Origin: a virus
Taxonomy: Duplodnaviria > Caudoviricetes
IMG/VR virus record: IMGVR_UViG_3300025013_000127
Coordinates: 1 to 62,546 of that record
Length of the DNA: 62,546 nt
Reading direction: 5' to 3' (one strand)
Under the pieces are notes generated by a model, which made no database searches, was not told the DNA's origin, and saw only the letters and a program-made list of their open reading frames with translations. The position numbers were made by a program, and so were the translations under genes. Of this stretch, positions 7,071 to 49,126 are shown one piece after another; positions within the stretch are counted from its first letter, which is position 1; each line of letters begins with the position of its first letter.

Positions 7071-8565
7071 ATGGATCACATTGCTATTAGAGTTCGACCT
7101 GCACCCGCAATTCAGGTGGCTTCGGACGAAGCTATTCTCGGCGACGCTACGTTCCCAGCAGCACACGTTGAACGTGTCCGTTCCTACACCTGTCATGAGC
7201 GGCGGCAGCGCGCCGAGTACCATTCGCGCCGTTACCTACGGCATCTTTCGGAGGAGGCACTGCGCCGTCGAGCGGGCGACCTCATCTGCAATGTCGTCTA
7301 CGTCTCACGGCACAACCGATATTCCGCCAACACACGCTATATCCACTACTGGCGGGATCGACTTGCGCACACCGTTGAAGAATTAACCATCCGCGGCGCG
7401 AGCACCGTGATTGAGGAGGGTGTGCTGGACCACCTGCCCCCTCTTGGCTTTTCAACCCCACGAGAGTTAGCCGGGGTTACGCGCGGGCGGGAATTTTACC
7501 GGTACGACAAGCTGAGCTACATCGAATCTTTACGTTCTAAAGGAGAAATCTTCTTGCGGTGCGCGTCAACTACGGACCTTGTACTCGACGCCGCCCGCAG
7601 CGACTCAAACGAGCTGTGTATCCGCCTGTCGCTGCTTGCCGAGGATTTGATCATTGAAAACGATGCATCGGTGCGCCCATGGTCTGGGAACCCAGATGTT
7701 GTAGACGTTAATATCCATCAGAAAACGGACTACTTGATGTTCTGCTTGTCATGCGTCTATGACTGGCGACTGTTTGGTAACTTCGGAGGTGAGGCTGCGG
7801 ACGGTGGCACAGGGGAACCTATGGCCTGCCTCGTCATTACGGACCAGGACGAGTTCTCGCGGCGTTTTGCCCGGGGGGTTGCCAATCTCGTGCCACAGTG
7901 GCGTGACCAAGCCGATGAGATCGAGATTAGCGAGGGAAGAGCCCACTACTACGACCCCTACGACGCACGTGAGTGTAACGCTCTATTCACAAACTCCGGG
8001 ATCTTGCCCTTCGCCAAGCGCCGGAGCTACACGTATCAGCATGAGTATCGGTTTGTCATTCGCCCCTGCCTACCAGAGAACTTTGTTCCCAGTTACTCCC
8101 CAGAGGCAATGCCTCAATTTAGTCGTGATTTTATTTACTTAGATAGCTTGAAAGACATTTCAACAATCATCTACTCAGATCCAGCGCGATTGCATCGGAG
8201 TCGATTTTACCTCTCTAGGAGGGAAAGCAGCATACTGGCGTCTGCAATCGGAGTGACTCTTGATGATAGCTCCGACCGAGTCCGCTTCACCTACTCCGTC
8301 GAGATTAAAGAGCGTGGACGAACCAATCCGGTTGATCTAATGACTCCCATGCGATATGAGCGCGGGGCAATAGGGATTCATCAGCAAGAAATCGACATCC
8401 CAGCGGACCCGTTGTCGCGGGACATCATTTCCTTGGTCGCTAGCTTCTACAAGGTCTTCGATGTGCGCGAACATGGTAATTACTTGATCCAGTTTAATGC
8501 CGAAGCAGCTAGGTTATCGGCGAGGTGTCGGTATCGCGTGTTCTTGCCTTGTGCTGAGCCTGGTG
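7071..8565 (+). pseudogene. Cassette 5 hypothetical protein, 5' part (interrupted by the prophage)
   Basis: Joins in frame to 49127-49413 when 8566-49126 is removed, reading ...CAEPG-GDELQVQ... (593 aa). Confidence 0.8.
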
Positions 8566-8606
8566 ACAAGGGGGGTGGGATAACTAACTCCTCAGAATCT
8601 TGATAA
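8566..8606 (+). repeat. Left terminal inverted repeat of the prophage
   Basis: ACAAGGGGGGTGGGATAAC...TGATAA; the first 19 nt match the reverse complement of the right end at 16 positions. Confidence 0.8.
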
Positions 8607-8725
8607 ACGTGTTTGGGGGTTCTTGGCAGATGCTTTACACTGGGGGCAAATCGACCACGCATCAAGAAAATGTTGATGGCGTTCGACCGTTGAAAATTTA
8701 TTGATTTCCGGGTACCGGGGAGGCG

Positions 8726-9052
8726 CTAGCCTCCTTTTCTTTTATCGGCGAGGTCGGGGGGTTGGGTGAGCGCTTCTGATGAACCGAAAACGAGCTTTGC
8801 GGTGGACGGGGGAGCCGCGGACTCAGCCCCCCAGTACTTAAGTATGATATCCATGGCACAGGCGGCGGCCGTGGGGGAGAAGTAGAGGTTTACTGTTTGG
8901 TCGTTGACGGGCGAAGAGTAGACAGCCCGTGACGGATCGGCGTCGAGAAGTCGGAAAAGGTCTTGGATCTCGCCAACCAGACGATCGGCCTTGCCTCTCA
9001 ATTGATCATCTCGCGTAATCCTTATGCTGTACCAGTTCATCGTTTCCATCAC
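8726..9052 (-). CDS. Hypothetical protein (prophage left-end accessory gene)
   Basis: 108-aa ORF abutting the upstream gene. Confidence 0.65.
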   Translation of the reverse strand: MMETMNWYSIRITRDDQLRGKADRLVGEIQDLFRLLDADPSRAVYSSPVNDQTVNLYFSPTAAACAMDIILKYWGAESAAPPSTAKLVFGSSEALTQPPDLADKRKGG

Positions 9053-9637
9053 CTACTCTCCCCAGGCAATTACACGGCCTTTTTTTACATAGAGCCAGAG
9101 GCCGCCTCTTCCGTACTGGTCGACTATGCCGTTTTTTGTTTTAACCTGGCCACGGAGAAAGACCTCGCCATAGCATTGTTGTACCCGCGACAGCTTCATC
9201 CCCACTTTTATATTTTGATAATCATCCCCGCAGACATCGTTCATATATCGTTCACTTTTTACTATCGAGCCCTCTATAAACCCATCCATGTATTCAGAAA
9301 AAAGGAGGGGGTCTGGTAGATGGTTGTAACAATTTACCAGTGGCGCATAAGCCGCTATGGCTTCAGATGTTTTGCCGGGCGCTGACACAAGTGAGCGGAA
9401 CGACTCTAGCGCTTCGAAATAGGATATAACGTCATTAATATCCGCATCCCGTTGCCAGTTACTGCCAGGTAGCGAGTTGACTAGCTTTTTGGCATTATCA
9501 AAGTCCTTGGCTAAAATTTTAGCTTCGATTTCAGCCATCAATGCCCCGCTGGGCGTGTCCATTGTCGCTGCGTCTGAATGAGCGATGGCAGGCAGGAATA
9601 GCATCAGAAAACATGTTACCAATATAAAACCTTTCAT
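9053..9637 (-). CDS. Exported protein, candidate moron
   Basis: Signal peptide MKGFILVTCFLMLFLPAIAHS; C-terminal IKVGM...LYVKKGRV segment resembling SmpA/BLIP folds; GGGAGGGA RBS. Confidence 0.7.
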   Translation of the reverse strand: MKGFILVTCFLMLFLPAIAHSDAATMDTPSGALMAEIEAKILAKDFDNAKKLVNSLPGSNWQRDADINDVISYFEALESFRSLVSAPGKTSEAIAAYAPLVNCYNHLPDPLLFSEYMDGFIEGSIVKSERYMNDVCGDDYQNIKVGMKLSRVQQCYGEVFLRGQVKTKNGIVDQYGRGGLWLYVKKGRVIAWGE

Positions 9638-9667
9638 GTCTGTCCCTCCCCTGTAGATCTTTGATGG

Positions 9668-10240
9668 CTATTGCTGGAACACCTTCCATGACATAGTGCG
9701 CTTCCTTGTGAGCTCGATGAATGCGATCGGATTTTGGGCTACGCAGGCTAGGAAGGAAAAGAACCATTTCGGCTGCTGGCGAAGCAGTTCTAGGGCTGTT
9801 GGGCCGCTAAGCTGGCTGTAAGCTACCAGCGCCAGGATTATCAGGGTCGGGAATATCATTAAGGTTACCAGGTTGATCGCGACCCAGCCAGCCTCTTTAT
9901 CTAAAACCAGCCTTTTTAGCCGTCCTAGCAGTTTCTTTTCCTCAGTGTATTTTAGAACCTCTCTCTGTGTCTCCTCATCCATGTCTTCAAGCACCTGGTC
10001 GATCAGTTTCACGACAGGGCTCGCCTTCCTCTTTTCTGTTAGCTCCTCGCCTGTTAGTAGCCAATCTAAGTTCACTCTTTCGTTTATTGCCCATTCAACG
10101 ACCACGGGCAAAAGGGTGCCTCTCTTCTTTCGGTTGCTGAAGTCTTGAGGCGAGATTCCAAGGGTTTTAGCAACATCCTTTTCGCTTCTCAGGCCCTTGA
10201 GTTTCATGATTTTATCTACCACTAAAACAAAGTTCACCAT
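9668..10240 (-). CDS. Phage CI-like HTH repressor with C-terminal hydrophobic extension
   Basis: KDVAKTLGISPQDFSNRKKRG...VNLDWLLTGE; divergent from ner. Confidence 0.85.
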   Translation of the reverse strand: MVNFVLVVDKIMKLKGLRSEKDVAKTLGISPQDFSNRKKRGTLLPVVVEWAINERVNLDWLLTGEELTEKRKASPVVKLIDQVLEDMDEETQREVLKYTEEKKLLGRLKRLVLDKEAGWVAINLVTLMIFPTLIILALVAYSQLSGPTALELLRQQPKWFFSFLACVAQNPIAFIELTRKRTMSWKVFQQ

Positions 10241-10255
10241 TCGTGTATTTTTCTC

Positions 10256-10283
10256 TTGATTAAATAAACGATTCGTTTATTAT
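10256..10283 (+). promoter_or_regulatory. Putative early promoter with palindromic operator
   Basis: TTGATT-16 nt-TATTAT, overlapping the perfect palindrome AATAAACGA-T-TCGTTTATT (10263-10281). Confidence 0.65.
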
Positions 10284-10516
10284 CGCGTTTATAAGTTTTA
10301 CTTCTAAGTTTCGGAAAGTCAAAAAAAGAAGATCAATCCTGGTCGGCGTCCTTGCAAGAGGAGTCGGCGAACTCGGGAAGACAATCGGTGACAGGCGGCT
10401 TCTTTGGCTTTCGATATTTTTTGATTAAAAATTTGGCAAGCAAGAACGTCCCAGTGACAGTGCCGGCACCAAGCGTTTCCCAAGCGGCTTCAGTAAAGCT
10501 TTTAGGAGGAAAGTTC

Positions 10517-10732
10517 ATGTCAAACCTCGTGAGAAATGTATTGCGATTAGTATTGGCGGCTATCGTGGGTAGTTTTTTGTGGGCCGCCATACTAATTGTC
10601 TGTGGCATTAACCGCTCATACGAACATTGGTGGCAGGATTTGATTGCCTTTATGGGTCCCTACTTCTACATGAAATCTCTGGAAAAGATTGCCGAACCAA
10701 TAGTTAAAGAAGCAGAAAAGGAGCTGTTATGA
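10517..10732 (+). CDS. Small membrane protein
   Basis: AGGAGG RBS; TM helix; stop overlaps the ner start. Confidence 0.65.
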   Translation: MSNLVRNVLRLVLAAIVGSFLWAAILIVCGINRSYEHWWQDLIAFMGPYFYMKSLEKIAEPIVKEAEKELL

Positions 10733-11037
10733 GTGCAAATCACAAGGCCCGTGCTGACTGGCATCCGGCTGACATCAAGGCTGCGCTGGCTAAGAAGGGG
10801 TACACCTTTGCCAGGGTTGCCCGAGAAAACGGGTATGTCCGGAACGCCCCTAACTCCGTACTGCATAAGCCCTGGTCACAGATTGAGCGGATAGTGGCCG
10901 AGATCATTGGGGTGCGTGCTGCCGAGATCTGGCCCAGCCGCTACGATCGGCGCGGCCGGCCGCTTAGGGAGCGGACTGCTAGGGTGACATGTAAGGACGG
11001 CAGGTTAGCAGAGATGAAGGTTGTTCGCAACGGCTAA
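10729..11037 (+). CDS. ner: Ner-family transcriptional regulator
   Basis: DWHPADIKAAL...EIWPSRY. Confidence 0.92.
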   Translation: MSANHKARADWHPADIKAALAKKGYTFARVARENGYVRNAPNSVLHKPWSQIERIVAEIIGVRAAEIWPSRYDRRGRPLRERTARVTCKDGRLAEMKVVRNG

Positions 11038-11057
11038 ATAGCTAATGGAGGCAGGTT

Positions 11058-11249
11058 ATGAGTGCGAAAGAGCTGGCGGAACGGGAGCAGGCGGTGCGGT
11101 ACGGTATTGAGTCGTTGTCGAAGAACTTCTGTATGCAGAAATGGTATGCCTTGCTGGCGCTGCGCACTGTTTGTTTCCACTTGGGCCTGGTCGAACTCCA
11201 CGCGGAGATCAACGTATTACTGAAAGACTCGTTGGAGGTGCCTAAATGA
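11058..11249 (+). CDS. Hypothetical protein
   Basis: GGAGG RBS; overlaps the next start. Confidence 0.55.
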   Translation: MSAKELAEREQAVRYGIESLSKNFCMQKWYALLALRTVCFHLGLVELHAEINVLLKDSLEVPK

Positions 11250-11542
11250 CTAGAAAGACTTACAACGCCGTTCAGTCGAATTACAAGTTCATCGACATTA
11301 TGGAGTTCCTGCATCAGCAGATGGGGCCGGTTTCCGGGACCGCGATCGCGAAGGCGCTGGATCTGCCTCACGGGACGGTGATGAGCCATCTGCAGCCGGC
11401 GATCGAGCGCAAGTGGGTGCGGGTGACCGGGGAGCTGTTCGAGGCGGGCGGCCGTATCAGTGGGCTGTACGCGGCTTATCTACAGGGGCTGAAGGATCGG
11501 AAGGTTTGCATCGAACGTGAAATTACAACACTGGAGGTTTGA
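11246..11542 (+). CDS. IclR-like winged HTH protein
   Basis: VSGTAIAKALDLPHGTVMSHL. Confidence 0.7.
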   Translation: MTRKTYNAVQSNYKFIDIMEFLHQQMGPVSGTAIAKALDLPHGTVMSHLQPAIERKWVRVTGELFEAGGRISGLYAAYLQGLKDRKVCIEREITTLEV

Positions 11543-11543
11543 G

Positions 11544-12467
11544 ATGGGCGGCAAGAGAGTTCGGGATTTGGAGGTGGTGAGCGATCAGGCTGTTTTGGAT
11601 ACAGCCAACCGCCAGGAGCGCGTTACGGGATTGGAGATCGCCACTCTCCAGCATGAGCGCGAGGTGGAGGACAACCGGGCGGTGGAGCAGGTTGAGAGGG
11701 AAAAGCGGATCGCGGAGTGTCACGAGGTTATCGGCCGTATCCAGGGCGTCAAGATGGTGGCCGATTTCGCCAACGTTGGCGGTTTGCTCTGGATCAAGCA
11801 GGTAAGGGAAACCAAGATCTATAAGGATCTTCCCAACGTCGGGACTTGGGATAAGTTCTGTAAATATATAGGTTCATCGAGACAGAAGGTGGAGCTTGAC
11901 CTTGATAATCTGGCGATTTTTGGCGAAGCATTTACGACAACGGTTGGCGCTTTTGGCGTCGGCTACCGGGATTTGCGCAAGTTGCGCCAACTCGCTATTG
12001 ACGGCTCGGTGATCATCGACGCGGAGTGCATCACCATCGGGGAGGAGACTATCCCGATCAACGAGGAGCATGCCGAGGATCTGCAGATGGCGATCGAGCG
12101 GGTCCTGGAGAGCCGGACCAAGCTGACCGAGCGGGTGGAGAGGCTGGAGAAGGACGTGAAGGGCGTGGTTGATGAGGAGACCAAGGGGCTTAAGGCTGAG
12201 GTCAAGGCGCTGGTGAAGGAGGTGCGCAGGCTTAAGCCGTTTGACCCGGAGGAGAGGGATATCTCTTTCGCTACCGAGCAACTGGAGGGGATCAAGGATG
12301 CGGTGCTCTCCTCGGTGGCTCTGATATCGAGCTTTATTGTGGATGAAAGGGTCCAACAGGAACCGATCATCATGGGTCAGGTTGAGGGGCATTTGCAGAC
12401 TATCGAGCTTGCTCTCTCCGATCTCCGCACCCGCTGGGAAAGGGCCGTTAATCTCTTCGAGGCGTGA
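11544..12467 (+). CDS. Mu-like early protein (DUF3102-like, coiled coil)
   Basis: Located directly before the transposase; TWDKFC motif; coiled-coil C-terminal half. Confidence 0.6.
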   Translation: MGGKRVRDLEVVSDQAVLDTANRQERVTGLEIATLQHEREVEDNRAVEQVEREKRIAECHEVIGRIQGVKMVADFANVGGLLWIKQVRETKIYKDLPNVGTWDKFCKYIGSSRQKVELDLDNLAIFGEAFTTTVGAFGVGYRDLRKLRQLAIDGSVIIDAECITIGEETIPINEEHAEDLQMAIERVLESRTKLTERVERLEKDVKGVVDEETKGLKAEVKALVKEVRRLKPFDPEERDISFATEQLEGIKDAVLSSVALISSFIVDERVQQEPIIMGQVEGHLQTIELALSDLRTRWERAVNLFEA

Positions 12468-12468
12468 C

Positions 12469-14067
12469 ATGGCAAAAGCGATCGATCCGGCCGTGCTGGC
12501 CATGATGAATGCTGATCTCGCTGCTTCCCCAAAGGGCGGCCGCACTAGGGTGGTGGCTGATTGGGCTGAGCGCCTCGGTATGAGCTACCAGACGCTGTAC
12601 CGCTCGATTCCGGCCAGCGGTAAGCGGACCGGCAAAAAGCGGGAGGGTAAACGCCAGATCGAGGATATCGAGAAGGCTGCGCTCCTGGTTGCCCAGGTGA
12701 AGAATCGGCCGCCTGAACACCGCGGACAGATCACGACGAAGGATGCGGTGCAGATCGCCGTGGCTAATGGGCTGATCCCCCTAGGGATGGCGCATGTGGC
12801 GACTTTCGACCGGGTGATCAGGGAGATCGGCGCGAACAAACAGCGCCGCCGGATCGAGCGTTTTCAGGCAGACCGCCCCAACGAGATGCACCATGTGGAT
12901 GCGTCGTCTTCCAACTGTTTCTATGTGCACCGGGAACTCCCCGGTGGTGATTTCATGCTCCGGATCTACGGGGGCACTAAGGATTACAAGAACAAGCCGG
13001 TGCCGATCCGGCTGCGCCCGTGGATCTACGGGGTTGTGGATGATTATTCGGGGTTCCATGTGGCGCGTTATATCGCGGCCCTGGGCGAGAGCGCGGGAGA
13101 TAACTTGGACTTCCTTTGTTGGGCCTGGTCACAGAACGCTGACAAGGAGCTTTTCGGTCTACCGGAAAAGATCAAGGGCGACCACGGGCCGATGATGAGC
13201 TCGGACGGGATCCCGGAGTGGTTCGAGCGGTTGGGGATCGAGATTGCCCCTTCGGAGGTGCTGAACAAGGATGCTCACGGCAAGATCGAGCGCCCCTGGC
13301 GGACCATGTGGCAGCGTTTCGAACTGCCCTTCTTTGCCGAGAGCGACTGGAAGAAATTCGAGATTCCGCTGTCGGAGCTGAATGAGCGTTTCCGGCGCTA
13401 CCAGCGGGATTACAACGAGATGAAGCACCGCTACGAGCGCACAATCAGCCGGCGCCAGGCGTGGCTCAAGATCAACCAGTATGGCGGCGCGATCGGTTTG
13501 CCTGAGGACGCGATCAAGACAGTGGTCAAGCGTTGGTCGCGCAAGGTTGGCCAGGACGGCTGCTTCTCCCTGGACAACGTGATTTACGAGGTCAAAGGGC
13601 TGCACGACGCATGGGTCTGGGTCTATCAGGGGATGTTCGAGAACAAGACGGTGGTGGTGTCCCAGGCGACGGGCGAGAAGTACGAGGTTGAGGACTTCAC
13701 GCCGAACAGGTTGGGCGAGTATTCGGAGGCTCCGGAGAGCGGTTATCAGCAGGTACGCAAGGCGGCTGTGGAGCTGCAAGGGCTGAAGAATACGCTTTAT
13801 ACGGAGGACAGGGCGGCGCCGGTGAATGTGCTGCAGATTCCTACCAGGGTTAAGGAGGTGAAACCGCTGCAAAACCCGCTCGATTTGGATTCTTACTGCT
13901 CGCTGAAGGAGGCGCTTGCCGACTTCCAGTGTTTGTCAGGGGTCATCCTGGAAGAGGGAAACAGTGAGGAGGTGGCTGCGCTCATTCGGGAAAACGGATT
14001 GTCGCGGCGGTATGTGATCGGCTTGGCGGCAGAAGTACAGGCAGAACAGGCAAGTGTAGCGATTTGA
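12469..14067 (+). CDS. DDE transposase (MuA-like)
   Basis: N-terminal HTH; HHVDAS, VDDYSG, GDHGP, GKIERPW catalytic motifs. Confidence 0.9.
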   Translation: MAKAIDPAVLAMMNADLAASPKGGRTRVVADWAERLGMSYQTLYRSIPASGKRTGKKREGKRQIEDIEKAALLVAQVKNRPPEHRGQITTKDAVQIAVANGLIPLGMAHVATFDRVIREIGANKQRRRIERFQADRPNEMHHVDASSSNCFYVHRELPGGDFMLRIYGGTKDYKNKPVPIRLRPWIYGVVDDYSGFHVARYIAALGESAGDNLDFLCWAWSQNADKELFGLPEKIKGDHGPMMSSDGIPEWFERLGIEIAPSEVLNKDAHGKIERPWRTMWQRFELPFFAESDWKKFEIPLSELNERFRRYQRDYNEMKHRYERTISRRQAWLKINQYGGAIGLPEDAIKTVVKRWSRKVGQDGCFSLDNVIYEVKGLHDAWVWVYQGMFENKTVVVSQATGEKYEVEDFTPNRLGEYSEAPESGYQQVRKAAVELQGLKNTLYTEDRAAPVNVLQIPTRVKEVKPLQNPLDLDSYCSLKEALADFQCLSGVILEEGNSEEVAALIRENGLSRRYVIGLAAEVQAEQASVAI

Positions 14068-14126
14068 TGGCGCGGCCCCCATGGCGGCAACCATGAGGGC
14101 CCTAAACGGGAGGAAAGGAGAACAGT

Positions 14127-15020
14127 ATGGATATGTCACGATTGGAACTTTTTTGCAACCTCGGATACAAGGTCGACCCGCTCAAGGGGCATAACTTCGA
14201 GACCGGGGACAGCCTCAGGGTGCGGCGGATCCTGACTATGGCGGTGGAATCGAACGCCATGGTGAGCATCGTTGGCGAGCGAGGGTTCGGCAAGACTGAG
14301 GCAGTCAAGGCGGCGCTGCGCAAGATCGGCGCCAAGGTGGTCATGGTTGCCAAATTGGACAAGAGCGCGGTGAAGATCGGCGACATAGAACGCGCCCTGG
14401 TCCTCGACTTGAGCCAGGAGCTTCCTAAGTCTAACGGGGAGATCCGCGCCAGGCAGCTCCGCCCCATTATCGGGGAGTCCGGGAAGAAGCGGAAGGTCGT
14501 TTTGCTGATCGAAGAGGCCCAGCGGATGCACTCCGCCACCCTGAAGAGTCTGAAAACGCTCCGAGAGATCGACTGGTGGGGAGAGCGCGAGCTTTTCACC
14601 ATCGTCCTGGTGGCGCAGAGCGACCCGATGGCCCGGGCGGGGGTCTCGGAGGTGGCGCTTCGCTCCGACACCGTCCGCATGCAGGGGCTTTCCAGCCAGG
14701 AGGCGGCGTCGTACATAAAGGCCACCGTCGGCCGGCACTTCGAAGAGGAGGCCCTCCAGGCCATGGGGGAATTCCCAGAGGCGGCAAACTGGCTGGAACT
14801 GCAGGCGCTGATCGTCCGGGTCCTGAACCGTGCCGTGGCCGATGGACGGAAAGAGGTAACCCTCCAGGACGTGCTCCAGGTGGCTGAGCAGAGCGTTTCG
14901 GCACTGCCGAAGAGCCTGGCTAAGGCCGCGGCGGCTCCGATCTCCGGCAAGCAGGCGCTGGCGAGCGTGCTGAACCGCAAGAGCGGCAAGGATGATGAGA
15001 AGGAGGCCGCCGCATGCTGA
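14127..15020 (+). CDS. AAA+ ATPase (MuB/ExeA-like)
   Basis: Walker A GERGFGKT; Walker B LLIEEAQ. Confidence 0.9.
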   Translation: MDMSRLELFCNLGYKVDPLKGHNFETGDSLRVRRILTMAVESNAMVSIVGERGFGKTEAVKAALRKIGAKVVMVAKLDKSAVKIGDIERALVLDLSQELPKSNGEIRARQLRPIIGESGKKRKVVLLIEEAQRMHSATLKSLKTLREIDWWGERELFTIVLVAQSDPMARAGVSEVALRSDTVRMQGLSSQEAASYIKATVGRHFEEEALQAMGEFPEAANWLELQALIVRVLNRAVADGRKEVTLQDVLQVAEQSVSALPKSLAKAAAAPISGKQALASVLNRKSGKDDEKEAAAC

Positions 15021-15496
15021 GACTCAAGGCTGCAATGAAGGATTGCGGGCTCGCCCAGGCGGAGCTGGTGCGCTTCACCGGTTACAGCAAGGCTTTGGTG
15101 TCCAGGGCGCTCAGTAACGGCGAGTTGCCGGTTGATTTCGACCGGTTTTATGCGGGGGTGACCGGGTATGTGGAGTCCCGGGAGTCGCTTGGCGACTGGC
15201 TCCGGCAGCGGGGTTTGATGGTGTCGGCGCTTTTCGAGGTGATCGGCGAAGACGGCCGGGAGATCTCGGTCCGGCGCACGGTGCCGCGCAACCTGCCGGT
15301 TGAGATCGATGTCGCGATCTTCGGCATCGCGGGTCGGGCGGTGACTCGCGGTGTCCCCCAGGAGGAGACGGTTTCCATTGCGAAGGTGGCGCTTTTCCTG
15401 CTGGAGCAGTTGCGCAATCAGCCTATGAGCATGGATGAGCTGGGGGAGATCGAGGTGGCTGCTGGGCGGCTTTTGCAGGCCGGTGCGGGCTCATGA
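15014..15496 (+). CDS. HTH protein
   Basis: GLAQAELVRFTGYSKALVSRAL. Confidence 0.65.
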   Translation: MLRLKAAMKDCGLAQAELVRFTGYSKALVSRALSNGELPVDFDRFYAGVTGYVESRESLGDWLRQRGLMVSALFEVIGEDGREISVRRTVPRNLPVEIDVAIFGIAGRAVTRGVPQEETVSIAKVALFLLEQLRNQPMSMDELGEIEVAAGRLLQAGAGS

Positions 15497-15741: not shown

Positions 15742-15776
15742 ACGCGGTGGACAAACAAAATGGAAAGGAGAAGGGG

Positions 15777-40438: not shown

Positions 40439-40470
40439 CCCTTAAATTTAGGTCACAGAAGGAGTTTGTC

Positions 40471-40917
40471 ATGATTAACGGGTCTCTGTATGACTGGGAA
40501 TCGGTGGAGATACTGCTGCCAAGCGGCATCGTGGTCGGTATCACCAACATCGATTACGAAGATGAGCGACAGATCGAAGAGCGTTACGGCAAGGGGAGCC
40601 AACCCCGCGGCTATGGCCGTAAGAACTATAAAGCCACCGCGAAAATAGAGGTGGACATTGACGCGGCCGAGTTGCTGGCGACCGCACTCGCGGCATCGGG
40701 CGGCGGCGGCATTTACGACAGCCTTCCGTTCCCGATTACCATCTGCTACGCGCCGCCGGGGCAACCCGTCATCACGGATGTGCTCCCTCTGTGTAAGATC
40801 GTCAAGGCAAGCACAGGCGCGAAGCAGGGTGACGATAACGTCGGGATCAGAAAATACGACCTCAAGGTTTTGGCTCCGATCGTCTGGGGAGCGATCCCGG
40901 CGCTGATTCCGAGATAA
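40471..40917 (+). CDS. Tail tube protein
   Basis: MING..YDW; YGKGSQPRGYGRKNY. Confidence 0.85.
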   Translation: MINGSLYDWESVEILLPSGIVVGITNIDYEDERQIEERYGKGSQPRGYGRKNYKATAKIEVDIDAAELLATALAASGGGGIYDSLPFPITICYAPPGQPVITDVLPLCKIVKASTGAKQGDDNVGIRKYDLKVLAPIVWGAIPALIPR

Positions 40918-41008
40918 TCACCCGCGGCGGCATCTTCCTTTTTATTTAATTATCGGCGGCGGCAAGAGCTTGCCCTCGCCTCACCACAGGGGTCAAAGGA
41001 GTTTTGAT

Positions 41009-41517
41009 ATGTCTGAAAAGTTGCCACAGTCCGTCATCGATGCGCAGACAGCACAGAAAACAGTCCTGGTGCTGACCGGAGACAACGAGGAGAAGTATTA
41101 CTTCCAGAAGCCGGGGTCGAAGGATATCGAGCGCTACATCGCCACGGCGACCAAGGGTAAGCCGGTCCAGGCGGTGCGCAACCTGGTTGTGGAGTTGGCG
41201 ATCCACCCGATAGGTGTTGAGCTGGCCAAGGAGTTCGTCGAGAATCCCGGCCGTATGGTGGCGCTCAATTCCGCGCTGCAGGCCTCGGTTGGCATGAATG
41301 AGGATTTCACCGCAAAAAAGTTGTAGAGCTTCGCGAGGAGCTGAGGGGTAACGGCCTCCGGCAGATGGCGATCCTGATCCGGCATTTCCTTAGGGTGGAG
41401 CCGGATCAGGATCTGGACGTCATGCTGGAGCAGTACGCGGAAGCGCTTTGGATTGAGGATCGTATAGCATCAGCCATGACGAATTCTATGGCCAAAGCAT
41501 TCAATGCCAACAAGTAA
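41009..41517 (+). CDS. Tail assembly chaperone (41009-41326) and its -1 frameshift extension to 41517
   Basis: Slippery A AAA AAG at 41314-41320, two codons before the TAG stop; the -1 frame is open for 65 codons up to the tape measure gene. Confidence 0.85.
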
Positions 41518-41538
41518 CGGCTATCGGGGAAGGTTGCA

Positions 41539-43656
41539 ATGGAATCGCTTTTCAAGCTGGGCATATTGATGCGGCTGTCCGATATGGTTTCCGGCCCGGC
41601 CACCAGAATTGGGAGCTCGCTCGCAGATCTGAGGACCAGGGCGGAGGCGATGGAGCCGATCTTCGAGAAATTCAAAAGTGTCGGCGTGCCCCTTGTTGCT
41701 GCCGGTGCGCTTATGCTCGGCGTGCTGACAGGAACGGTTATGGCTACCGCCGAAACACAGAAGGCTCTTGGCGAGTTGGCCTCGGTTGGCATAAGGGATA
41801 TGGCTGCGCTCGAGCGCGCCGGTACGGACTTCAGTAATCGCTGGTCCGGCACCACCAAGGCGCAATTCATCGCCGCGGCTTACGACATCAAGAGCGGGAT
41901 ATCTTCTCTTACCGATACCGGCGTGGCCGAGTTCACCAAGCTAGCGGCCTTGACCGGCAAGGCTACCAAGAGCACCACGGCGGAGATGACCAGTCTCTTC
42001 GCCACTGCCTACGGTATCTACAAAAGCCAGTACGATGGGCTTAGCGACATCCAGTTCGGGAATGTTTTTTCCGGCGGCATTGCCGCTTCGGTAAGGGCTT
42101 TCAAAACCACGGGCGGCGGCATGGCCCAGGCGATCTCCACCCTGGGCGCCACTGCCGCCACCGCCAAAGTGCCCATGCAGGAGCAGCTCGCCATAGTCGG
42201 GATGCTGCAGTCGACAATGGCCGGCGGTGAGGCGGGCACCAAATACAAGGCTTTCATGCAGGCGGCGGCCGGCGCCGGTCAAAATCTGAAGATTTCGCTG
42301 CTTGACACGAACAACCAGTTGCTGTCGATGCCGGAAATACTGACCAAATTGAGAGGCCGCTTCGGTGACACTCTTGACGCTGTGGAGAAAATGCAGATCC
42401 AGAAAGCTTTCGGCACTCAGGAGGCGGTCGCGGTCATCGACCTTTTGTACAACAAGGTTGGAGATCTGACCGGCAATATCAAGATTGTTTCGGATGCGAT
42501 GAGCCAGGGCACTATCTATACGGAGCAGATGGCCAATGCGATGAACCAGGACATCGGAGCAGGGATAGGGTTGCTGCGCCAGCGCATGCACAATCTGGCT
42601 GAGACACTCGGCAATCGACTGATCCCCATTCTGGCGCCGATGTTTGCTTTTGTGCTCAATATCGTGCTGGCTTTACAGCGGTTCGCCGAGAAGCACGATA
42701 CGTTGACCCGGGTGGTCATGGTGAGTTTGGCTGTCATCGCCGGGCTGGCATTCGCTCTGGGTGGAGTGGCGACGGTCATCGGTGTGATCGGTCTGGGCTA
42801 TCCCGCGGTGGTGACGGGCATCGGCCTGATCACCGGGGCTTTCAATATAGCCACAGCGGCCACATGGAGATTCACCGCGGCGCTGTTGACGAATCCTGTC
42901 ACAGGGATCGTGGTCGCGATTGTCGCCGCTGCCATGCTGGCCGGCAAGGCGTTTTTGTGGATGTACGGCAATGTCACCTGGTATAAGGCGGCGGTTGACG
43001 GGCTGCTTTACGGGTTGGGCTTTGGATTGGGCCGGATGGTCAAATGGCTGGGACAGATGGCGGGAGTGGTTGCCGCTCCTTTCCGGGCTGTATGGTCCAT
43101 TTTTTCCCAACTGATCGCGGCTCTTCCGCAGATTGAGGTGGCTGTTTCCACAGCCATGGTGGGCATGCTTAGCGCGTTTCCAACCATATTGAAGGGCATG
43201 TGGAACTCTGGCCGCTCGATAATCTCCACGCTGGTCTCCGGGATCAAGTCCAGGGCGTCCGGGCCGGTGGATGCCGTTAAGGAAATCTTTAGCAAGGTGC
43301 GCAACCTGCTTCCTTTTTCGGATGCCAAGGAGGGGCCGCTGTCTCAGTTGACGCTCTCCGGTTCGCGCATCATGTCCACCCTGGGGGAAGGCATCGCAGG
43401 CGGAGCCGCGGGGTTGCATAGGACTATGGCTGCGGCGCTGGCCGGGGCTGCACTGACTACCTCGATCGCCGTGGCGGCTCCTTCGGGGAGCGCTAAGGCT
43501 GCTCTTGGTGGCGCGGCAAGGGCGGAGAAGTCAGCGACCGTGCAGGGGAAATCTTTTGCTATCCACATCGAACGGCTGGAACTCCCGGGGGTGAGTAACG
43601 GGGCGGACTTCGTTAAGCAGTTGCAGGCTATGGTGGAGGCTTTTGATGCAGAATAA
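41539..43656 (+). CDS. Tape measure protein
   Basis: AAAYDIKSG, GGEAGT, FGTQEA; PFSDAKEGPLS. Confidence 0.92.
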   Translation: MESLFKLGILMRLSDMVSGPATRIGSSLADLRTRAEAMEPIFEKFKSVGVPLVAAGALMLGVLTGTVMATAETQKALGELASVGIRDMAALERAGTDFSNRWSGTTKAQFIAAAYDIKSGISSLTDTGVAEFTKLAALTGKATKSTTAEMTSLFATAYGIYKSQYDGLSDIQFGNVFSGGIAASVRAFKTTGGGMAQAISTLGATAATAKVPMQEQLAIVGMLQSTMAGGEAGTKYKAFMQAAAGAGQNLKISLLDTNNQLLSMPEILTKLRGRFGDTLDAVEKMQIQKAFGTQEAVAVIDLLYNKVGDLTGNIKIVSDAMSQGTIYTEQMANAMNQDIGAGIGLLRQRMHNLAETLGNRLIPILAPMFAFVLNIVLALQRFAEKHDTLTRVVMVSLAVIAGLAFALGGVATVIGVIGLGYPAVVTGIGLITGAFNIATAATWRFTAALLTNPVTGIVVAIVAAAMLAGKAFLWMYGNVTWYKAAVDGLLYGLGFGLGRMVKWLGQMAGVVAAPFRAVWSIFSQLIAALPQIEVAVSTAMVGMLSAFPTILKGMWNSGRSIISTLVSGIKSRASGPVDAVKEIFSKVRNLLPFSDAKEGPLSQLTLSGSRIMSTLGEGIAGGAAGLHRTMAAALAGAALTTSIAVAAPSGSAKAALGGAARAEKSATVQGKSFAIHIERLELPGVSNGADFVKQLQAMVEAFDAE

Positions 43657-44212
43657 CCTGCTTACTTGGGCGGATGGCGAGGTGAAGCTGGGGGGCGAGT
43701 TGCTCCCCGGTATATTCCTGGACCAGAGCGTCCGCGGTTCGGTGCGGTTCGACCAGTCGGAAAAAGATGCGCAATCGGGTAAGCACAAGGTGCCGCTGGG
43801 GTATCAGGATGCGGACATCTCGATTACGCTGGAGCTCGTTTGCGATGAGAGCGGCGACTGCTACAGCAAGCTGACCCAGATCAACAAGGTTTTCCGGGCG
43901 GACCAAAAAGCTAACCCTCAGGTTTATTCGGTGGGAAACCGGCACTGTCAAGCGCGGGGAATCCGCAATGTTGTTTTCTCAGGGCTGGATTCGTTCGAGT
44001 CTAGTGAGGAGGATGTGATAACGGCAATACTGTCGTTTGTCGAACATCTGCCGCCGGTGATCAGGCGGGAAAAACAGGTGACCGCCGCCAAGTCGGCGGC
44101 TGCCAAGGCGGGGACGGCGCCGGCTGTGAAGGCTACACCGGCGCCGGCGCCGGCGGTGGTTTCTGATCCGGACAGCCCTTTCATGGCTGGATTTCAGGCG
44201 GGCTCTCAGTAA
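43646..44212 (+). CDS. Tail tube initiator/baseplate protein
   Basis: Position after the tape measure gene. Confidence 0.6.
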   Translation: MQNNLLTWADGEVKLGGELLPGIFLDQSVRGSVRFDQSEKDAQSGKHKVPLGYQDADISITLELVCDESGDCYSKLTQINKVFRADQKANPQVYSVGNRHCQARGIRNVVFSGLDSFESSEEDVITAILSFVEHLPPVIRREKQVTAAKSAAAKAGTAPAVKATPAPAPAVVSDPDSPFMAGFQAGSQ

Positions 44213-45015
44213 TGGATATAAATGGAATTAACCTTGAAATTACGGTGGGCGACCTGGAGGTATATCGCGCGCCTCGCTGGTGGATCGAGTCACTGCGGCA
44301 CCATCCTCTAGGGCGGGCCGGAATCACGCTACCGGACCCGAAGGGGGAACTTTACCAGGCCGTCTCAGCGGGTAATGCTGTGTCGATTAGCGTCGGGTAC
44401 CGGGACCAGGCGCTGTCGACCTGGAGAGGCACGGTGACGGCCCGCTACCCCGGGGAGACTCCCGATCAGCTGGAGATCCGGGCGACAGATGCATCTTTGG
44501 CTCTGTCCCAGCTCGACAGGCGCGTCAAACAGGCATGGGAAAACGAGACTCCGGAGGCGCTGGTGACGTGGGCCATTGGGCAGTGCGGGCTCCCGGTCGG
44601 CCGGGTCGGCTCTACCGGGGTGGTGCTCCCCAGAGTGTCTGCTGCAACCATCCCAGTCTGGCAGCTTGTCCGGCAGGTCAGGCAGACCTGCCAGGACGGG
44701 TTTGGTATGGATATGAGCCGGTGGGCTCTCTGGCTGGGTGCTGCGGGGGTTAACTGGGGCGATTTCGACGAGCCGGGGGAGACGGTGACTATCGCCACGG
44801 GGGACAACCTGATCGACCATGAGCCGAACGACTGGAGGAGCGGCATGGGGCTCATCGAGACCTATCTGCTGGCGGGTCTGAGCCATTCCCGTTTGGTGCG
44901 TCTGCAGGATGATCTACGCGGCATCAATGCAGTACACCGGGCGCTGAGGGTGAGGCACGAAGGGACACCGGAGCGGGTGAGGAGTTATGTCTGGTATGGG
45001 GTGGAGCATGGCTGA
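44212..45015 (+). CDS. Baseplate hub protein
   Basis: ISVGY motif; position. Confidence 0.65.
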   Translation: MDINGINLEITVGDLEVYRAPRWWIESLRHHPLGRAGITLPDPKGELYQAVSAGNAVSISVGYRDQALSTWRGTVTARYPGETPDQLEIRATDASLALSQLDRRVKQAWENETPEALVTWAIGQCGLPVGRVGSTGVVLPRVSAATIPVWQLVRQVRQTCQDGFGMDMSRWALWLGAAGVNWGDFDEPGETVTIATGDNLIDHEPNDWRSGMGLIETYLLAGLSHSRLVRLQDDLRGINAVHRALRVRHEGTPERVRSYVWYGVEHG

Positions 45016-45577
45016 GGTGGACCTTAAAAAGCTGATGCAGCGGGTGGTGGAGTTGGTGATGCCGAACTTACGAGGCTATTACCGAGTGCCGCGCAAGGGC
45101 CGCGTGGTCAAAGCTTACGCCTCCGGAGGGGATTACTGGGCGGACGTGCAACCGCTGAGAAATGACGACAGCGATGACGACAAGGAGCCGGTGATTACCA
45201 GGATCGAGATACCTATCCTGTGGGGCGGGCCGGAGCGCGGCGTGGTCTGTCCGCCGACCGTCGGGACACTGTGCGACATCACCTACTACGATGGGGATCC
45301 GGACTATCCGCGGATCAGCAATTTTCGATGGGCCAAGAATAAGGCGCCGGCCTGCGCAATGGGGGCGTTTGTGATCCAGCAGAGTCCGGATGTCTATTTT
45401 TTGATTACGCCCGGTGGGAAGCTGGAGATCAAGGCCAATACCTCCGAAATGAATATGGTCCAGCTGGACATCATAGCAAACGTGAGTATCACCGGAAACC
45501 TTGATGTGACCGGCAATGTAACGGCCACCGGCACGATTATCGACGCCGCCGGTAACACGAACCATCACTCGCACTGA
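45008..45577 (+). CDS. Baseplate spike (gpV-like)
   Basis: OB-fold with P.VG; beta repeats; terminal HHSH. Confidence 0.85.
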   Translation: MAEVDLKKLMQRVVELVMPNLRGYYRVPRKGRVVKAYASGGDYWADVQPLRNDDSDDDKEPVITRIEIPILWGGPERGVVCPPTVGTLCDITYYDGDPDYPRISNFRWAKNKAPACAMGAFVIQQSPDVYFLITPGGKLEIKANTSEMNMVQLDIIANVSITGNLDVTGNVTATGTIIDAAGNTNHHSH

Positions 45578-45584
45578 GGCAATC

Positions 45585-46022
45585 ATGGATGATGTTTTTG
45601 GGCAGGATATAAAGCTGGGGGATGATGAGACGGCGCTGGTGGCTGCCAATGGCGAGTTGCTGTTGACTGTGGGGGCGGAGACTGGAACCCAGGATATCCG
45701 TTTGAGGCTTTTTACCCGTCTGCATGAGCTGTTCTACGACTTCGATTTCGGGGCCTTGGTGCATGATTGGATTAAGGAGGAGCAGACGATATCCAATTCC
45801 CATGGTTTCGAGGCGGAGGTGGAACAGCGCATCGAGGCGGACCCGCGGGTGGTTATCGGCACTGTCTCTTGTAAGGTTGTCGCCTGGGACAACGGGAAAC
45901 TCACCGCACAGGCGGCGTGGGAATTCATCGATGAGACGCACCCCTTTAACCTGATCATCGCGTTCAATAGCGCGAATAAGGAGCTGGTGATAAAAGATGT
46001 CAATCCAAGACCTGGTCTCTAA
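45585..46022 (+). CDS. Baseplate wedge (gpW/GP46-like)
   Basis: LF...DFG; DPRV. Confidence 0.75.
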   Translation: MDDVFGQDIKLGDDETALVAANGELLLTVGAETGTQDIRLRLFTRLHELFYDFDFGALVHDWIKEEQTISNSHGFEAEVEQRIEADPRVVIGTVSCKVVAWDNGKLTAQAAWEFIDETHPFNLIIAFNSANKELVIKDVNPRPGL

Positions 46023-47169
46023 GTCGCTCGATGCGATCCGCCAAGAGATGTTTGATAACCTGTCGGCAAAACAGGAGGAGTATGTTGCCGCCGGGTGGCT
46101 CCCTATCCGGCTGAACCTGAACAAGGGGGTGGTGCGCGGGCTGATCGAGCTCTGGTGCTGGGGCCTCTGGCAGTTGTACCAGTTTTTGGCGCTGATATTG
46201 AAACAAGCGACGCCGGCGGAGGCGACCGGGGCATGGCTGGATCTCTGGTGTCTTTCGGTCTCAGTGAGCCGCAAAATGGAATCTAAAGCCGCCGGGACTG
46301 TCTATTTTGTGCGTGAGGGGACGGTGGGCAACGTGCGCATTCCAGTGGGGCGCATCGTAAGGACACTGCCGGACGGTACCGGCACCGTTTACCGTTATAC
46401 GACCACTGAGGAGGTGATTCTCCTGGCGGGGACGTCGGAGATCGCTTGTCCTGTGGTCGCGGAGGAATATGGCAGCGCCAGCAACGCGACGGCTGGTCAG
46501 ATCTGCGAGATCGTCACGGTCATCCCCGGCATTGACGGGGTGGAAAATAGGGCCGGGTGGCTGTCATCGGAGGCGACGGATCGTGAGACCGATGAGCCGC
46601 TGCGCAGTCGGTATGTCCTGGCTTGGCAAGGGTTGAGCGGCTGCACCAAATACGCATACGAGTCGTGGGCTATGTCGGTGACCGGAGTGGTGTCGGTCAA
46701 GATCCTCGACCAGCACCCGCGGGGCCAGGGCACGGTGGACGTGGTGGTGGTAGGTGCTGCCGGTATCCCGACCCAGGCGCTGCTGACCGCGGTTGAGGGC
46801 AAGATCCTGGGGACCGGTGCCAATGATGACCTGGCGCCGCTTAATGATGACGTGGAGGTTAAGGCTCCGACTCCGGTTAATATCGCGATTGTGGCCGAGC
46901 TGGTCCTTTTGTATGGCGATCCGGAGACGCTTTTGGCTGAGGCGGAGAACGGCGTACGGGCTCTATTTAATACGTCATCGCTGTATAGCGTCGATCCGTT
47001 GGCTGTGGGGCATGATGGCACGCTGGATCGGATCAGGAAACCGATGATGCTACCAGGGGTCAAGAAGGTCAATATTGCCAGTCCGTTGGCCGATGTGCCG
47101 GTTGCTGCGGACGGCCTGGCTGTGCTGCAGAGCCTAACCCTGACCACATCGTGGGCCACCGAGGAGTAA
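45997..47169 (+). CDS. Baseplate J-like protein
   Basis: ATGAWLD; ETDEPLRSR; RGQGTVDV. Confidence 0.9.
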   Translation: MSIQDLVSKSLDAIRQEMFDNLSAKQEEYVAAGWLPIRLNLNKGVVRGLIELWCWGLWQLYQFLALILKQATPAEATGAWLDLWCLSVSVSRKMESKAAGTVYFVREGTVGNVRIPVGRIVRTLPDGTGTVYRYTTTEEVILLAGTSEIACPVVAEEYGSASNATAGQICEIVTVIPGIDGVENRAGWLSSEATDRETDEPLRSRYVLAWQGLSGCTKYAYESWAMSVTGVVSVKILDQHPRGQGTVDVVVVGAAGIPTQALLTAVEGKILGTGANDDLAPLNDDVEVKAPTPVNIAIVAELVLLYGDPETLLAEAENGVRALFNTSSLYSVDPLAVGHDGTLDRIRKPMMLPGVKKVNIASPLADVPVAADGLAVLQSLTLTTSWATEE

Positions 47170-47172
47170 GAG

Positions 47173-47745
47173 ATGAGCATTTTCACCGACTACTTCAGGG
47201 AGACTTTGCGCTTTCGGCCGGTCCTGGCCGGCGGCCCTCTGGCTATTTTGGCGTATGGCGCGGCGCTGTTGCTCGATGCGGTGCGGGAGGTGATGCTGGT
47301 CTTGCGGGACCAGTTCTTTGCTGAGCGCTGCGAGATCAATCGGCTTTCCAAATTTGCCAAAGCACGCGGCATTACCCGCCACCCGCTTGAGACCACGGAA
47401 GGGTTCCAATCGAGGGTACGGCTGGCGTATTTGTGGCACAAGCGAGGCGGCCGGCCGGAGGGGATGAGTCATATCCTTAACGACTATTTCGGGTTCGGCG
47501 GTGTGGTGGTCGAGAGCCTGAGGAGTGAGGACCCTACGCGGTGGGCCGAGTTCCGTGTCATGGTGCTTTCCCTGGGGACGGCGGAGAGTTTTGATGAAGA
47601 GGCAGTGCGATGGGTTATTAACGAGATCAAGCCGGCGCGGTCCAAGATCGGGGTGATCGCGCCCAATGGGGCGCCGAGGGTGTTCCGGGTCAATAGGGAG
47701 CGCGTGGGCGACAAGCTGCTTTACTGGCCGGTGCCTGTCGATTAG
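47173..47745 (+). CDS. Baseplate/tail protein I-like
   Basis: RWAEF; EIKPARS. Confidence 0.75.
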   Translation: MSIFTDYFRETLRFRPVLAGGPLAILAYGAALLLDAVREVMLVLRDQFFAERCEINRLSKFAKARGITRHPLETTEGFQSRVRLAYLWHKRGGRPEGMSHILNDYFGFGGVVVESLRSEDPTRWAEFRVMVLSLGTAESFDEEAVRWVINEIKPARSKIGVIAPNGAPRVFRVNRERVGDKLLYWPVPVD

Positions 47746-47813
47746 TAGCTGTTGGGGATGATAAGAAAGTCTGGAGACGGTTTGAGAGGGATTGACAGAT
47801 AAATATGGGAGGG

Positions 47814-48926
47814 ATGATGAAGACTGTATTTGATCCGGGTAACGTGGATTTGGGCATCGAAGGCACTCAAGTAACTGCGGATTTTATGAATGGTTTACAG
47901 AATCACCGCCACGACGGAGGTGATGAAGACGGCGGTTTCCCCAGTAACTATGCAGTGGACACTGGCATAGCTAACGCCTATGTCATCACTCTGGCCCCGG
48001 CGTTGACAGCACACGTTCCCGGCATGCCTATACTTTTCAAGGCTTCTGCCTCCAATACTGGTGCTTCCACTATAGAGATCGACGACCTGGCTGCGGTAGC
48101 TATTAAACAGCCCGATGGCGCTGCGCTTGCCAGCGCTCATATCTTGGCGGGGGCTATCTGTGAAATCGTCTATGACGGGGAGAGCTACCAGCTACTCACG
48201 GCGGCTTATAGGTCCACTGTTTATGCCGTGGACACGGGAATTGCTAATGCCCACGTCATCACTTTGCCGGCACCGTTCGCCGCTCATGTCGCCGGGTTGA
48301 AAATTTTGTTCAAGGCACTGTTTGCCAACACGGGACCCGCCACGCTGAACATCAACGGTTTGGGGGCTGTTGCTATCAAGCAGAATAACGGAAAGGTGCT
48401 CTGTGGCGGGCATATCGCGGCAGGGCAGATCTGCGAGATGGTCTACGATGGGGTCAATTACCAGTTCCAGAACCCCAACCTGGTATCACGGGGCTGCCTG
48501 GTGCACCATGTCGGCAATATGACCCTGCAACCCTACGCCTGGACCAAAGTGCAATTCCTGGATGCGAACAAGGCCTATGATACTGATGGCATCCATAGCG
48601 ATGCAAACAATACACGCCTTGTCGTGCCTGGGGGCATAACAAGGATACAGTTGATCGGCCAGTTTAGCTTTTCCATGACCGAGAACGAAACCTTCGCTGT
48701 CACCTTCCACAAGAATGGTTCGGCGGAGGCATATGCCGGGATGCCGATACAGTCGGGCGAACAGGAATCGTCCGGAATCATGGCCAAGTCGGTTAATGCT
48801 ACGTCGCCCGTGCTTGTTGTTGCGCCTGGGGATTACTTTGAAATGGTGATTGCACAGGGTTGTAACGCCGCGCACTCAACCACGGGCGATGTCAGGACTT
48901 GGGCCTGGATGAAGATTATTGATTAG
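47814..48926 (+). CDS. Tail fibre with two tandem ~90-aa domains
   Basis: YAVDTGIANA...NTG..T...YDG twice; C-terminal jelly-roll-like domain. Confidence 0.8.
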   Translation: MMKTVFDPGNVDLGIEGTQVTADFMNGLQNHRHDGGDEDGGFPSNYAVDTGIANAYVITLAPALTAHVPGMPILFKASASNTGASTIEIDDLAAVAIKQPDGAALASAHILAGAICEIVYDGESYQLLTAAYRSTVYAVDTGIANAHVITLPAPFAAHVAGLKILFKALFANTGPATLNINGLGAVAIKQNNGKVLCGGHIAAGQICEMVYDGVNYQFQNPNLVSRGCLVHHVGNMTLQPYAWTKVQFLDANKAYDTDGIHSDANNTRLVVPGGITRIQLIGQFSFSMTENETFAVTFHKNGSAEAYAGMPIQSGEQESSGIMAKSVNATSPVLVVAPGDYFEMVIAQGCNAAHSTTGDVRTWAWMKIID

Positions 48927-49010
48927 GTTGATAGCGAGCGCTGGTGGAATGCTGCTGTGAGATGCGGTGATTGAACGGCTGGATGGCGGATTAACTGATG
49001 GACAAAAGTG

Positions 49011-49044
49011 TTGAGCCATGGCATATGATCTTGCCATGGCTCAA
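49011..49044. repeat. Perfect 13-bp inverted repeat near the prophage right end
   Basis: TTGAGCCATGGCA-tatgatct-TGCCATGGCTCAA. Confidence 0.85.
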
Positions 49045-49082
49045 ACTATTTTTGACGTGCTCAATAGAATGGGCGCGGGGTA

Positions 49083-49123
49083 TTATCACGCTTTTGGGCG
49101 GCTGGTTATCGCACCGCGCTTGT
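49083..49123 (-). repeat. Right terminal inverted repeat of the prophage
   Basis: Reverse complement reads ACAAGCGCGGTGCGATAAC...TGATAA. Confidence 0.8.
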
Positions 49124-49126
49124 GTG

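Follow-up and report, generated by a model that had tools for sequence, protein, structure and literature searches.

A Mu-like prophage lineage with AC...GT ends and a 3-bp target-site duplication

The DNA analyzed here is a provirus record of IMG/VR (IMGVR_UViG_3300025013_000127; 62,546 nucleotides), referred to below as the window, in which host DNA lies on either side of a prophage. The prophage occupies positions 8566-49123 (40,558 bp) and, judged from its gene content, is an apparently intact Mu-like transposable prophage. Its ends read 5'-ACAAGGGGGG...CCGCGCTTGT-3', with ACAAG at 8566-8570 and CTTGT at 49119-49123, and the triplet GTG stands outside each end as a target-site duplication (TSD). 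The ends and the interrupted host open reading frame (ORF) are arranged as follows.

7038-8565, plus strand: 5' part of the interrupted host ORF, a hypothetical protein (ORF list; no Pfam or PHROG match)
8563-8565: left TSD copy, GTG (direct reading; single GTG in the empty-site orthologue)
8566-8606, plus strand: left end, ACAAGGGGGG followed by two repeats that contain GATAA and lie 23 nt apart, where the transposase presumably binds
49083-49123, minus strand: right end, whose minus-strand reading is ACAAGCGCGG followed by two GATAA-containing repeats
49124-49126: right TSD copy, GTG (direct reading; single GTG in the empty-site orthologue)
49124-49413, plus strand: 3' part of the interrupted host ORF (codon starts 49126, 49129 and onward), alignable with the G083 orthologue beginning at the shared GTG

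Over their first 19 nt, the left end and the reverse-complemented right end are identical at 16 positions. Mismatches occur at positions 6, 8, and 13, each pairing G with C, and GATAAC occupies positions 14-19 in both ends. A second TGATAA lies 16 nt further in on either side (8601-8606 and, as TTATCA, 49083-49088). The inverted repeat ends at ACAAG; the three bases outside it read GTG at the left end and CAC at the right end once this is reverse-complemented, which makes them a direct rather than an inverted repeat. When one mismatch at most is allowed, the pattern ACAAGNGNGGTGNGATAAC matches the window twice, once per end and in opposite orientations, and has no match in any of 100 dinucleotide-preserving shuffles. 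An earlier interpretation of this DNA made from the letters alone (the sequence-only reading) had given these coordinates, the GTG flanks, the 16-of-19 match, and the equally spaced second GATAA, all of which were correct when read again. Its claim that removal of the element restores the host frame also held. The left host frame, which at present reads on into the prophage and stops at 8601-8603, joins the right ORF part in frame when the element and one GTG are taken out.

Genes between the ends follow the order CI-type repressor, Ner-like regulator, phrog_4623 protein, transposase, ATPase, DUF3164 protein, GemA, endolysin, packaging, head, and tail.

9668-10240, minus strand: CI-type repressor (Pfam Phage_CI_repr 1.9e-7; PHROG transcriptional repressor)
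10729-11037, plus strand: Ner-like winged helix-turn-helix (HTH) early regulator (Pfam HTH_35 1.5e-25; phrog_769 2.7e-26)
11517-12467, plus strand: conserved 316-amino-acid protein, function unassigned (phrog_4623 6.4e-27; weak coiled-coil-type Pfam matches only)
12469-14067, plus strand: DDE transposase, 532 amino acids (phrog_310 transposase 1.3e-36)
14127-15020, plus strand: MuB-like AAA+ ATPase (Pfam AAA_22 3.1e-12; phrog_296 "DNA transposition protein" 3.4e-11)
18091-18831, plus strand: GemA-like protein (Pfam GemA 1.8e-8)
22168-23001, plus strand: endolysin (Pfam Glyco_hydro_108 and PG_binding_3; phrog_315)
25183-29526, plus strand: packaging/portal block with a DUF1804 DNA-binding protein, large terminase, and portal fused to a minor-head-protein-like part (Pfam DUF1804; phrog_38 8e-73; phrog_3753 2.9e-85)
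29592-32557, plus strand: head maturation protease, virion protein, and major head protein (phrog_8158, phrog_4588, and phrog_3922 2.2e-69)
38756-48926, plus strand: contractile tail module with sheath, tube, tape measure, baseplate, and tail fibre (Pfam DUF2586 3.9e-92 and phrog_907 for the sheath; phrog_4579; PhageMin_Tail; Baseplate_J 1.8e-45; tail-fibre PHROGs)

Relatives of the transposase were found in Geobacter, Desulfuromonadaceae, Trichlorobacter, Smithella, and other metagenome-assembled genomes as well as in viral contigs. Both ends could be located in ten elements, including the one in the window. All ten are bounded by ACAAG...CTTGT and by perfect 3-bp direct repeats of differing sequence.

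Window, 8566-49123: repeat GTG
G003:C1, 470204-507133: repeat GAG
G002:C15, 127-41464: repeat AAG
G002:C28, 15842-57091: repeat GAT
IMGVR_UViG_3300045973_001484, 2839-44220: repeat TTG
G001:C350, 13288-28304: repeat ATG
IMGVR_UViG_3300025718_000136, 101-15236: repeat GTG
G081:C42, 15221-54962: repeat CTG
G205:C1, 2992406-3031363: repeat CAG
G205:C1, 3710254-3748146: repeat GAC

A 3-bp match is expected by chance in 1/64 of cases per element. Eight full-length relatives measure 36,930-41,382 bp, in keeping with the size of about 36-40 kb usual for transposable phages. Two more left/right pairs, each split across contigs and both flanked by CTG, also fit; they are provisional and stand outside the ten. 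A stricter end pattern, ACAAG plus two GATAA motifs, matched 21 times, in 9 of the 239 genomes from the order, and its reversed control never matched. One of the 21, in G159 (L175), was judged spurious, as nothing beyond the pattern resembles an end. With two 14-base end patterns, 3 of 128 loci in viral contigs passed the two-GATAA filter, in addition to a left/right pair on a shared contig (L084/L169); most of the other matches in these contigs are chance. A pair in G002:C3 (93009/134287) was rejected because its flanks, caa and cac, do not match and the second GATAA is absent.

The accepted set comprises 14 distinct left ends and 13 distinct right ends, which establishes ACAAG...CTTGT as a trait of the lineage. 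Its first ten bases, ACAAGGGGGG, are invariant in all 14 left ends, and ACAAGCGCG is kept in all 13 right ends; every left end that was present began with ACAAGGGGGG next to unrelated outside sequence. Positions 6 and 8 differ between left and right in all 27 (8571-8573 and 49116-49118 in the window), with GGGGGG on left ends and GCGCGG or GCGCGC on right ends. This conserved asymmetry may allow the two ends to be told apart.

A single 3-bp match has a 1/64 chance of arising at random, and TG happens to precede ACAAG in the window. Both facts would suit a canonical TG...CA element with a 5-bp duplication whose borders were misread through chance or faulty assembly. The 3-bp repeat in 10/10 elements speaks against such an artefact. 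The bases preceding ACAAG vary among elements (ctg, atg, cac, gag, ctt, and others), which places TG outside the element. In two samples (runs X1/X2; run X3), contigs span the left junction with 0 differences, although both samples are possible sources of the window and thus do not provide independent support. The run contigs contain no joints and no alternative flanks at 8566. An end pattern starting with TG had three matches in the 239 genomes, none of them in a genome with the transposase; in viral contigs it had 96 matches, three with a second GATAA, and two of these three are short fragments that lack the transposase. We regard an artefact as extremely unlikely. The sequence-only reading had named homologous prophages ending in TG...CA as evidence that would overturn it, and none was found in this lineage.

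More distant relatives have transposases of 38-47% identity; when their ends were sought de novo, as an inverted repeat accompanied by a duplication, nothing convincing emerged for G241, G243, G244, and G595. This search is noisy, as it ranked the true pair only second in the window itself, and many IMG/VR records of distant relatives are trimmed at gene borders and carry no ends. Relatives with 41-53% identical transposases have candidate variant left ends at the position homologous to ACAAG. ACTAG (L212, near 1577) and ATTAG (L224, near 606) were each seen once with no right end and are unconfirmed, as are TGAAG (L217, near 128 / G642, 42% identity) and the contig start TGTGCAGGGGGG (L226, position 1). 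Were these candidates real, the terminal bases would vary within the family and TG-type relatives would exist.

An uninterrupted orthologue of the host gene provides a view of the insertion site without the prophage. When the C-terminal 209 residues of the left host fragment were searched as protein against the 239 genomes, a single match was returned, in G083, within an open frame that contains no stop. The G083 orthologue is 88% identical to the host gene and forms an uninterrupted 580-amino-acid ORF across the insertion point. Nucleotide alignment to G083 (blastn, L170) places the left flank at 1896-1500 and the right flank from 1502 downward, so that exactly three bases, GTG, belong to both. 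The empty site reads GCAGAGCCAGGTGACGACGATCTGCAAG and lies within the intact ORF ...AEPGDDDLQVQP... An 18-nt empty form with one GTG had been predicted by the sequence-only reading, and its counterpart in G083 is GAGCCAGGTGACGACGAT, which differs from the prediction by three substitutions in this 88%-identical orthologue. Contigs of run X3 contain a diverged homologue in which left-flank-like sequence runs straight into right-flank-like sequence; this arrangement is consistent with an empty site and is not base-precise.

The empty site also bears on site-specific recombination at a short core, a mechanism in which the imperfect 11-nt sequences CTGGTGACAAG and GTGGCGACGAG at the junctions would be the remains of an attachment core. 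Read in that register, the junctions share 8 of 11 positions, and excision would also preserve the host frame. However, that register predicts a 15-nt empty form, which is not what G083 shows; its site is the 18-nt form with a single GTG. Pfam and PHROG scans of 55 ORFs revealed no tyrosine or serine recombinase, and the ten related elements occupy ten different sites with differing triplets. In G170, moreover, one phage end adjoins two different flanks. Site-specific recombination is accordingly very unlikely.

Target statistics cover 17 insertion sites, counted as 29 combinations of end and flank. All 29 combinations (17/17 sites) have A or T in the middle of the triplet, and each outer base is G or C in 24/29; C is commonest at -3 (17/29) and G at -1 (16/29). 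Flank positions -4 to -12 are 24-59% A/T. From these counts the target is roughly C-W-G, where W denotes A or T. The G170 case involves one left end, identical over the 122 nt compared, at two flanks (G170:C15:82-122 and G170:C102:13749-13789). Contig G002:C15 contains only the prophage and, beside it, flanks of 126 and 127 nt, and we infer that it could represent an assembly branch point, that is, an insertion that is polymorphic in the sample. Together, G170 and G002:C15 suggest polymorphic or multiple insertions in the sampled populations.

The transposase gene starts at 12469, its start codon lying two bases past the end of the phrog_4623 ORF directly upstream, and a 532-amino-acid database protein is identical to its product. 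The catalytic residues D144, D238, and E274 are invariant in 66 aligned members, down to 23% identity. A profile built from this alignment matches TnsB of the type V-K CRISPR-associated transposon (CAST) ShCAST at 1.3e-14, from the catalytic core through the beta-barrel, and after TnsB it matches retroviral integrase cores. The AlphaFold model (mean predicted local distance difference test score, 83.1) begins with an N-terminal HTH and a second helical domain, continues with an RNase H-like core and a beta-barrel, and ends, past a disordered linker, in a C-terminal three-helix domain. Foldseek ranked TnsB first (3e-14), followed by IstA of the insertion sequence (IS) IS21 (3.3e-13), Tn7 TnsB, and the Mu transpososome (4fcy; 7.8e-8), with 13-16% identity to the matched TnsB and IstA. 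Single-sequence searches with the transposase returned no match to MuA, and a single-sequence PDB search with the ATPase returned no match. No Pfam or NCBIfam match of the transposase is above threshold, and its placement therefore rests on comparison of profile and fold. By profile and modeled fold, the transposase is closest to TnsB, IstA, and MuA.

A 3-bp duplication is typical of IS3-family elements, which raises copy-out-paste-in transposition of the IS3/IS481/IS30 type as another source of the footprint. In that pathway a circular or head-to-tail junction, with the ends about 3 bp apart, integrates and leaves the 3-bp duplication. Apart from the length of the repeat, it could draw on the best NCBIfam match of the transposase, to IS481 (1.1e-9; residues 73-363 of the 576-amino-acid ORF), which is far below cut-off at 38.3 bits against 224; the IS3 model scores 12.6 against 160. 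Against it, the profile and fold matches continue past the catalytic core through the beta-barrel, as in TnsB, IstA, and MuA, a MuB-like AAA+ ATPase gene follows the transposase, and the genome is otherwise Mu-like (GemA, DUF1804, terminase, portal). The circle junction that the sequence-only reading had envisaged, like those of some IS elements, is speculative. A right-end/left-end junction with a 0-10-nt spacer had no match in viral contigs, and 0 of 21 pattern matches in metagenome contigs were accompanied by GATAA to the left or right; as such intermediates seldom survive assembly, these negatives are weak. We consider copy-out-paste-in unlikely.

We thus favor, with a probability of about 0.87, a Mu-like prophage lineage with AC...GT ends and a 3-bp duplication that inserts by DDE transposition rather than by site-specific recombination. 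The lineage is found mainly in Geobacter and Desulfuromonadaceae-type genomes, and the tail of the window prophage is of myovirus type. Its ends, duplication, empty site, multiple insertion sites, and catalytic triad support this interpretation at the sequence level, as does the predicted fold; on the same footing, the ends and the 3-bp footprint are a real, lineage-wide feature. Several points weigh on the other side. The one base-precise empty site comes from an 88%-identical orthologue rather than the same strain, and a second, sought in orthologous regions of G205, is too diverged for base precision. Run data consisted of assembled contigs only, in which packaged genomes with host flanks and fresh insertions were not seen. 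The Pfam rve match of the transposase is sub-threshold (E 0.0067), and its best NCBIfam match is the far sub-cut-off one to IS481. Finally, the stagger, the strand polarity, and the replicative mode are deduced from footprints.

In the mechanism we propose, the 532-amino-acid transposase would bind the paired GATAA-containing repeats at each end and work with the adjacent MuB-like ATPase as its putative target-capture partner. The 3'-OH ends (...CTTGT-3' on both strands) would then attack target phosphates staggered by 3 bp, and gap repair or replication would generate the 3-bp duplication. Perhaps the target has to be deformed, which would account for the central A/T of the triplet. Given its Mu-like genes, the phage would be expected to transpose replicatively during lytic growth and to package its DNA together with host flanks. 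The sequence-only reading had attributed to the transposase both a different stagger and different end chemistry. The former follows from the 3-bp duplication in 10/10 elements together with the single GTG of the empty site. The latter was overstated: the D-D-E triad is invariant and the fold resembles TnsB, IstA, and MuA, so the chemistry is probably the usual one, and it is the recognized terminal bases and the active-site spacing that probably differ.

Two of the ten elements are much shorter, at 15,017 bp (G001:C350:13288-28304, equivalent to L003 6707-21723) and 15,136 bp (IMGVR_UViG_3300025718_000136, G245, 101-15236), and carry the same ACAAG...CTTGT ends and 3-bp repeats. Each encodes a repressor, the phrog_4623 protein, the transposase, the ATPase, and a Mor-like activator. 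Their late genes are limited to a 441-amino-acid capsid ORF and a tape-measure-like ORF of 1,115-1,172 amino acids. At 76% identity, the capsid ORF matches the C-terminal portion of an open frame of 788 amino acids that the full-length prophage in the same genome carries. The two elements share their gene order, but their sequences have diverged (73% identity for the capsid, 52-72% for the tape measure), a pattern that looks more like a family being propagated than like a pair of random deletions. They are possibly transposing satellites of the full-length phages. The phrog_4623 homologue occupies the same position in the 15-kb element as in the window prophage, and the protein may be a transposition accessory factor.

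Other features of the window deserve mention. Between the head and tail modules (34483-38417) are two large ORFs of 660 and 651 amino acids with immunoglobulin-like and chitobiase/hexosaminidase C-terminal domains. They are unusual in a Mu-like genome and may be decoration or adhesion proteins. The left host flank (342-5993) resembles a mobile or defence island, with an integrase N-terminal SAM-like fragment (342-995), Abi_alpha (1357-2169), and a group II intron reverse transcriptase/maturase (4341-5993). A cluster at 56316-60439, on the other side of the prophage, comprises three calcineurin-like metallophosphoesterase genes and a NIF-type phosphatase gene.

In the available portion of PMC8705779, TG...CA and the duplication length are treated as fixed hallmarks for finding prophage borders; searches of this kind would mis-call the borders of the present lineage. 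A relative of TnsB, MuA, and IstA with a 3-bp footprint and AC...GT ends also offers a comparison set for stagger and end bases. With the same fold and a different stagger and ends, it could show what fixes the spacing of active sites on the target and what imposes the need for a terminal CA, matters of relevance to the engineering of Tn7/CAST-type insertion tools. If our interpretation is true, the lineage is a natural experiment on end recognition and stagger in the enzyme family behind Tn7 and CRISPR-associated transposons. Among 1.84 billion representatives, the transposase family accounts for 627 clusters at E<=1e-3, of which the stricter E<=1e-30 leaves 94, and named homologues come from the cultured bacteria Geobacter sp. 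M21, Geobacter sp. SVR, Chrysiogenes arsenatis, and Desulfosarcina ovata. Since the family is not tiny and has homologues in cultured bacteria, experiments are feasible.

Among known systems, the nearest solved structures are TnsB (Tn7 and type V-K CAST) and IstA (IS21), each of which works with an AAA+ partner, TnsC or IstB; these systems differ from the window element in being transposons, not phages. Tn7 and CAST make 5-bp duplications and have TG...CA ends. Elements of the IS3 and IS481 families are 1-1.5 kb in length, end in TG...CA, have no beta-barrel and no ATPase partner, and form a circle junction. The window transposase has weak similarity to the IS481 model in the catalytic region, whereas those IS3/IS481 traits were not found in the window element.

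Among phages, the closest transposases from cultured phages are 23-26% identical among the matches listed. A tblastn search of 50,697 phage records gave 58 matching records, all below 60% identity; the best were B3/D3112-type Pseudomonas phages and phiSHP3 of Stenotrophomonas, which are the same kind of element as the window prophage. According to the accessible part of PMC8705779, the duplication is 6 bp for B3 and 5 bp for Mu, and a 5/6-bp scar is a key feature for finding transposable prophages. The part of PMC5977238 available on the D3112-like phage Ab30 describes a five-base shift between orientations. The same accessible text of PMC8705779 gives TG-CA ends as conserved in all described Mu and B3-like phages except a TA-TA group of Leptospira prophages, which combine TA...TA ends with B3-like 6-bp repeats. 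These prophages are the one precedent we found for non-canonical terminal dinucleotides with an otherwise standard DDE transposase. Their duplication stays at 6 bp, whereas the window lineage departs in both end bases and length. The available portions of PMC7761591 and of a hankyphage preprint contained no statement on duplication length. Our literature search found no description of a transposable phage with a 3-bp duplication or of such a Geobacter Mu-like prophage; most subscription journals and supplements lay outside it, and an earlier description elsewhere is possible.

With Mu itself the window prophage shares a genome of about 37-40 kb with the order repressor, Ner, transposase, ATPase, GemA, lysis, DUF1804/terminase/portal, head, and contractile tail, many insertion sites with a short duplication, and a transposase built from a DDE core and a beta-barrel. 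The window transposase is shorter (532 amino acids), and Mu has TG...CA ends with a 5-bp duplication (PMC8705779, accessible part) in place of AC...GT and 3 bp. We lean toward the view that this is the first described clade of transposable phages whose MuA/TnsB-family transposase has given up the near-universal terminal CA-3' in favor of ...TTGT-3', with a stagger narrowed to 3 bp, a C-(A/T)-G target preference, and the same ends bounding 15-kb elements that are possibly transposing satellites. The lineage differs from every transposable phage in the searchable papers in two linked ways, having AC...GT rather than TG...CA ends and a duplication of 3 bp rather than 5 or 6.

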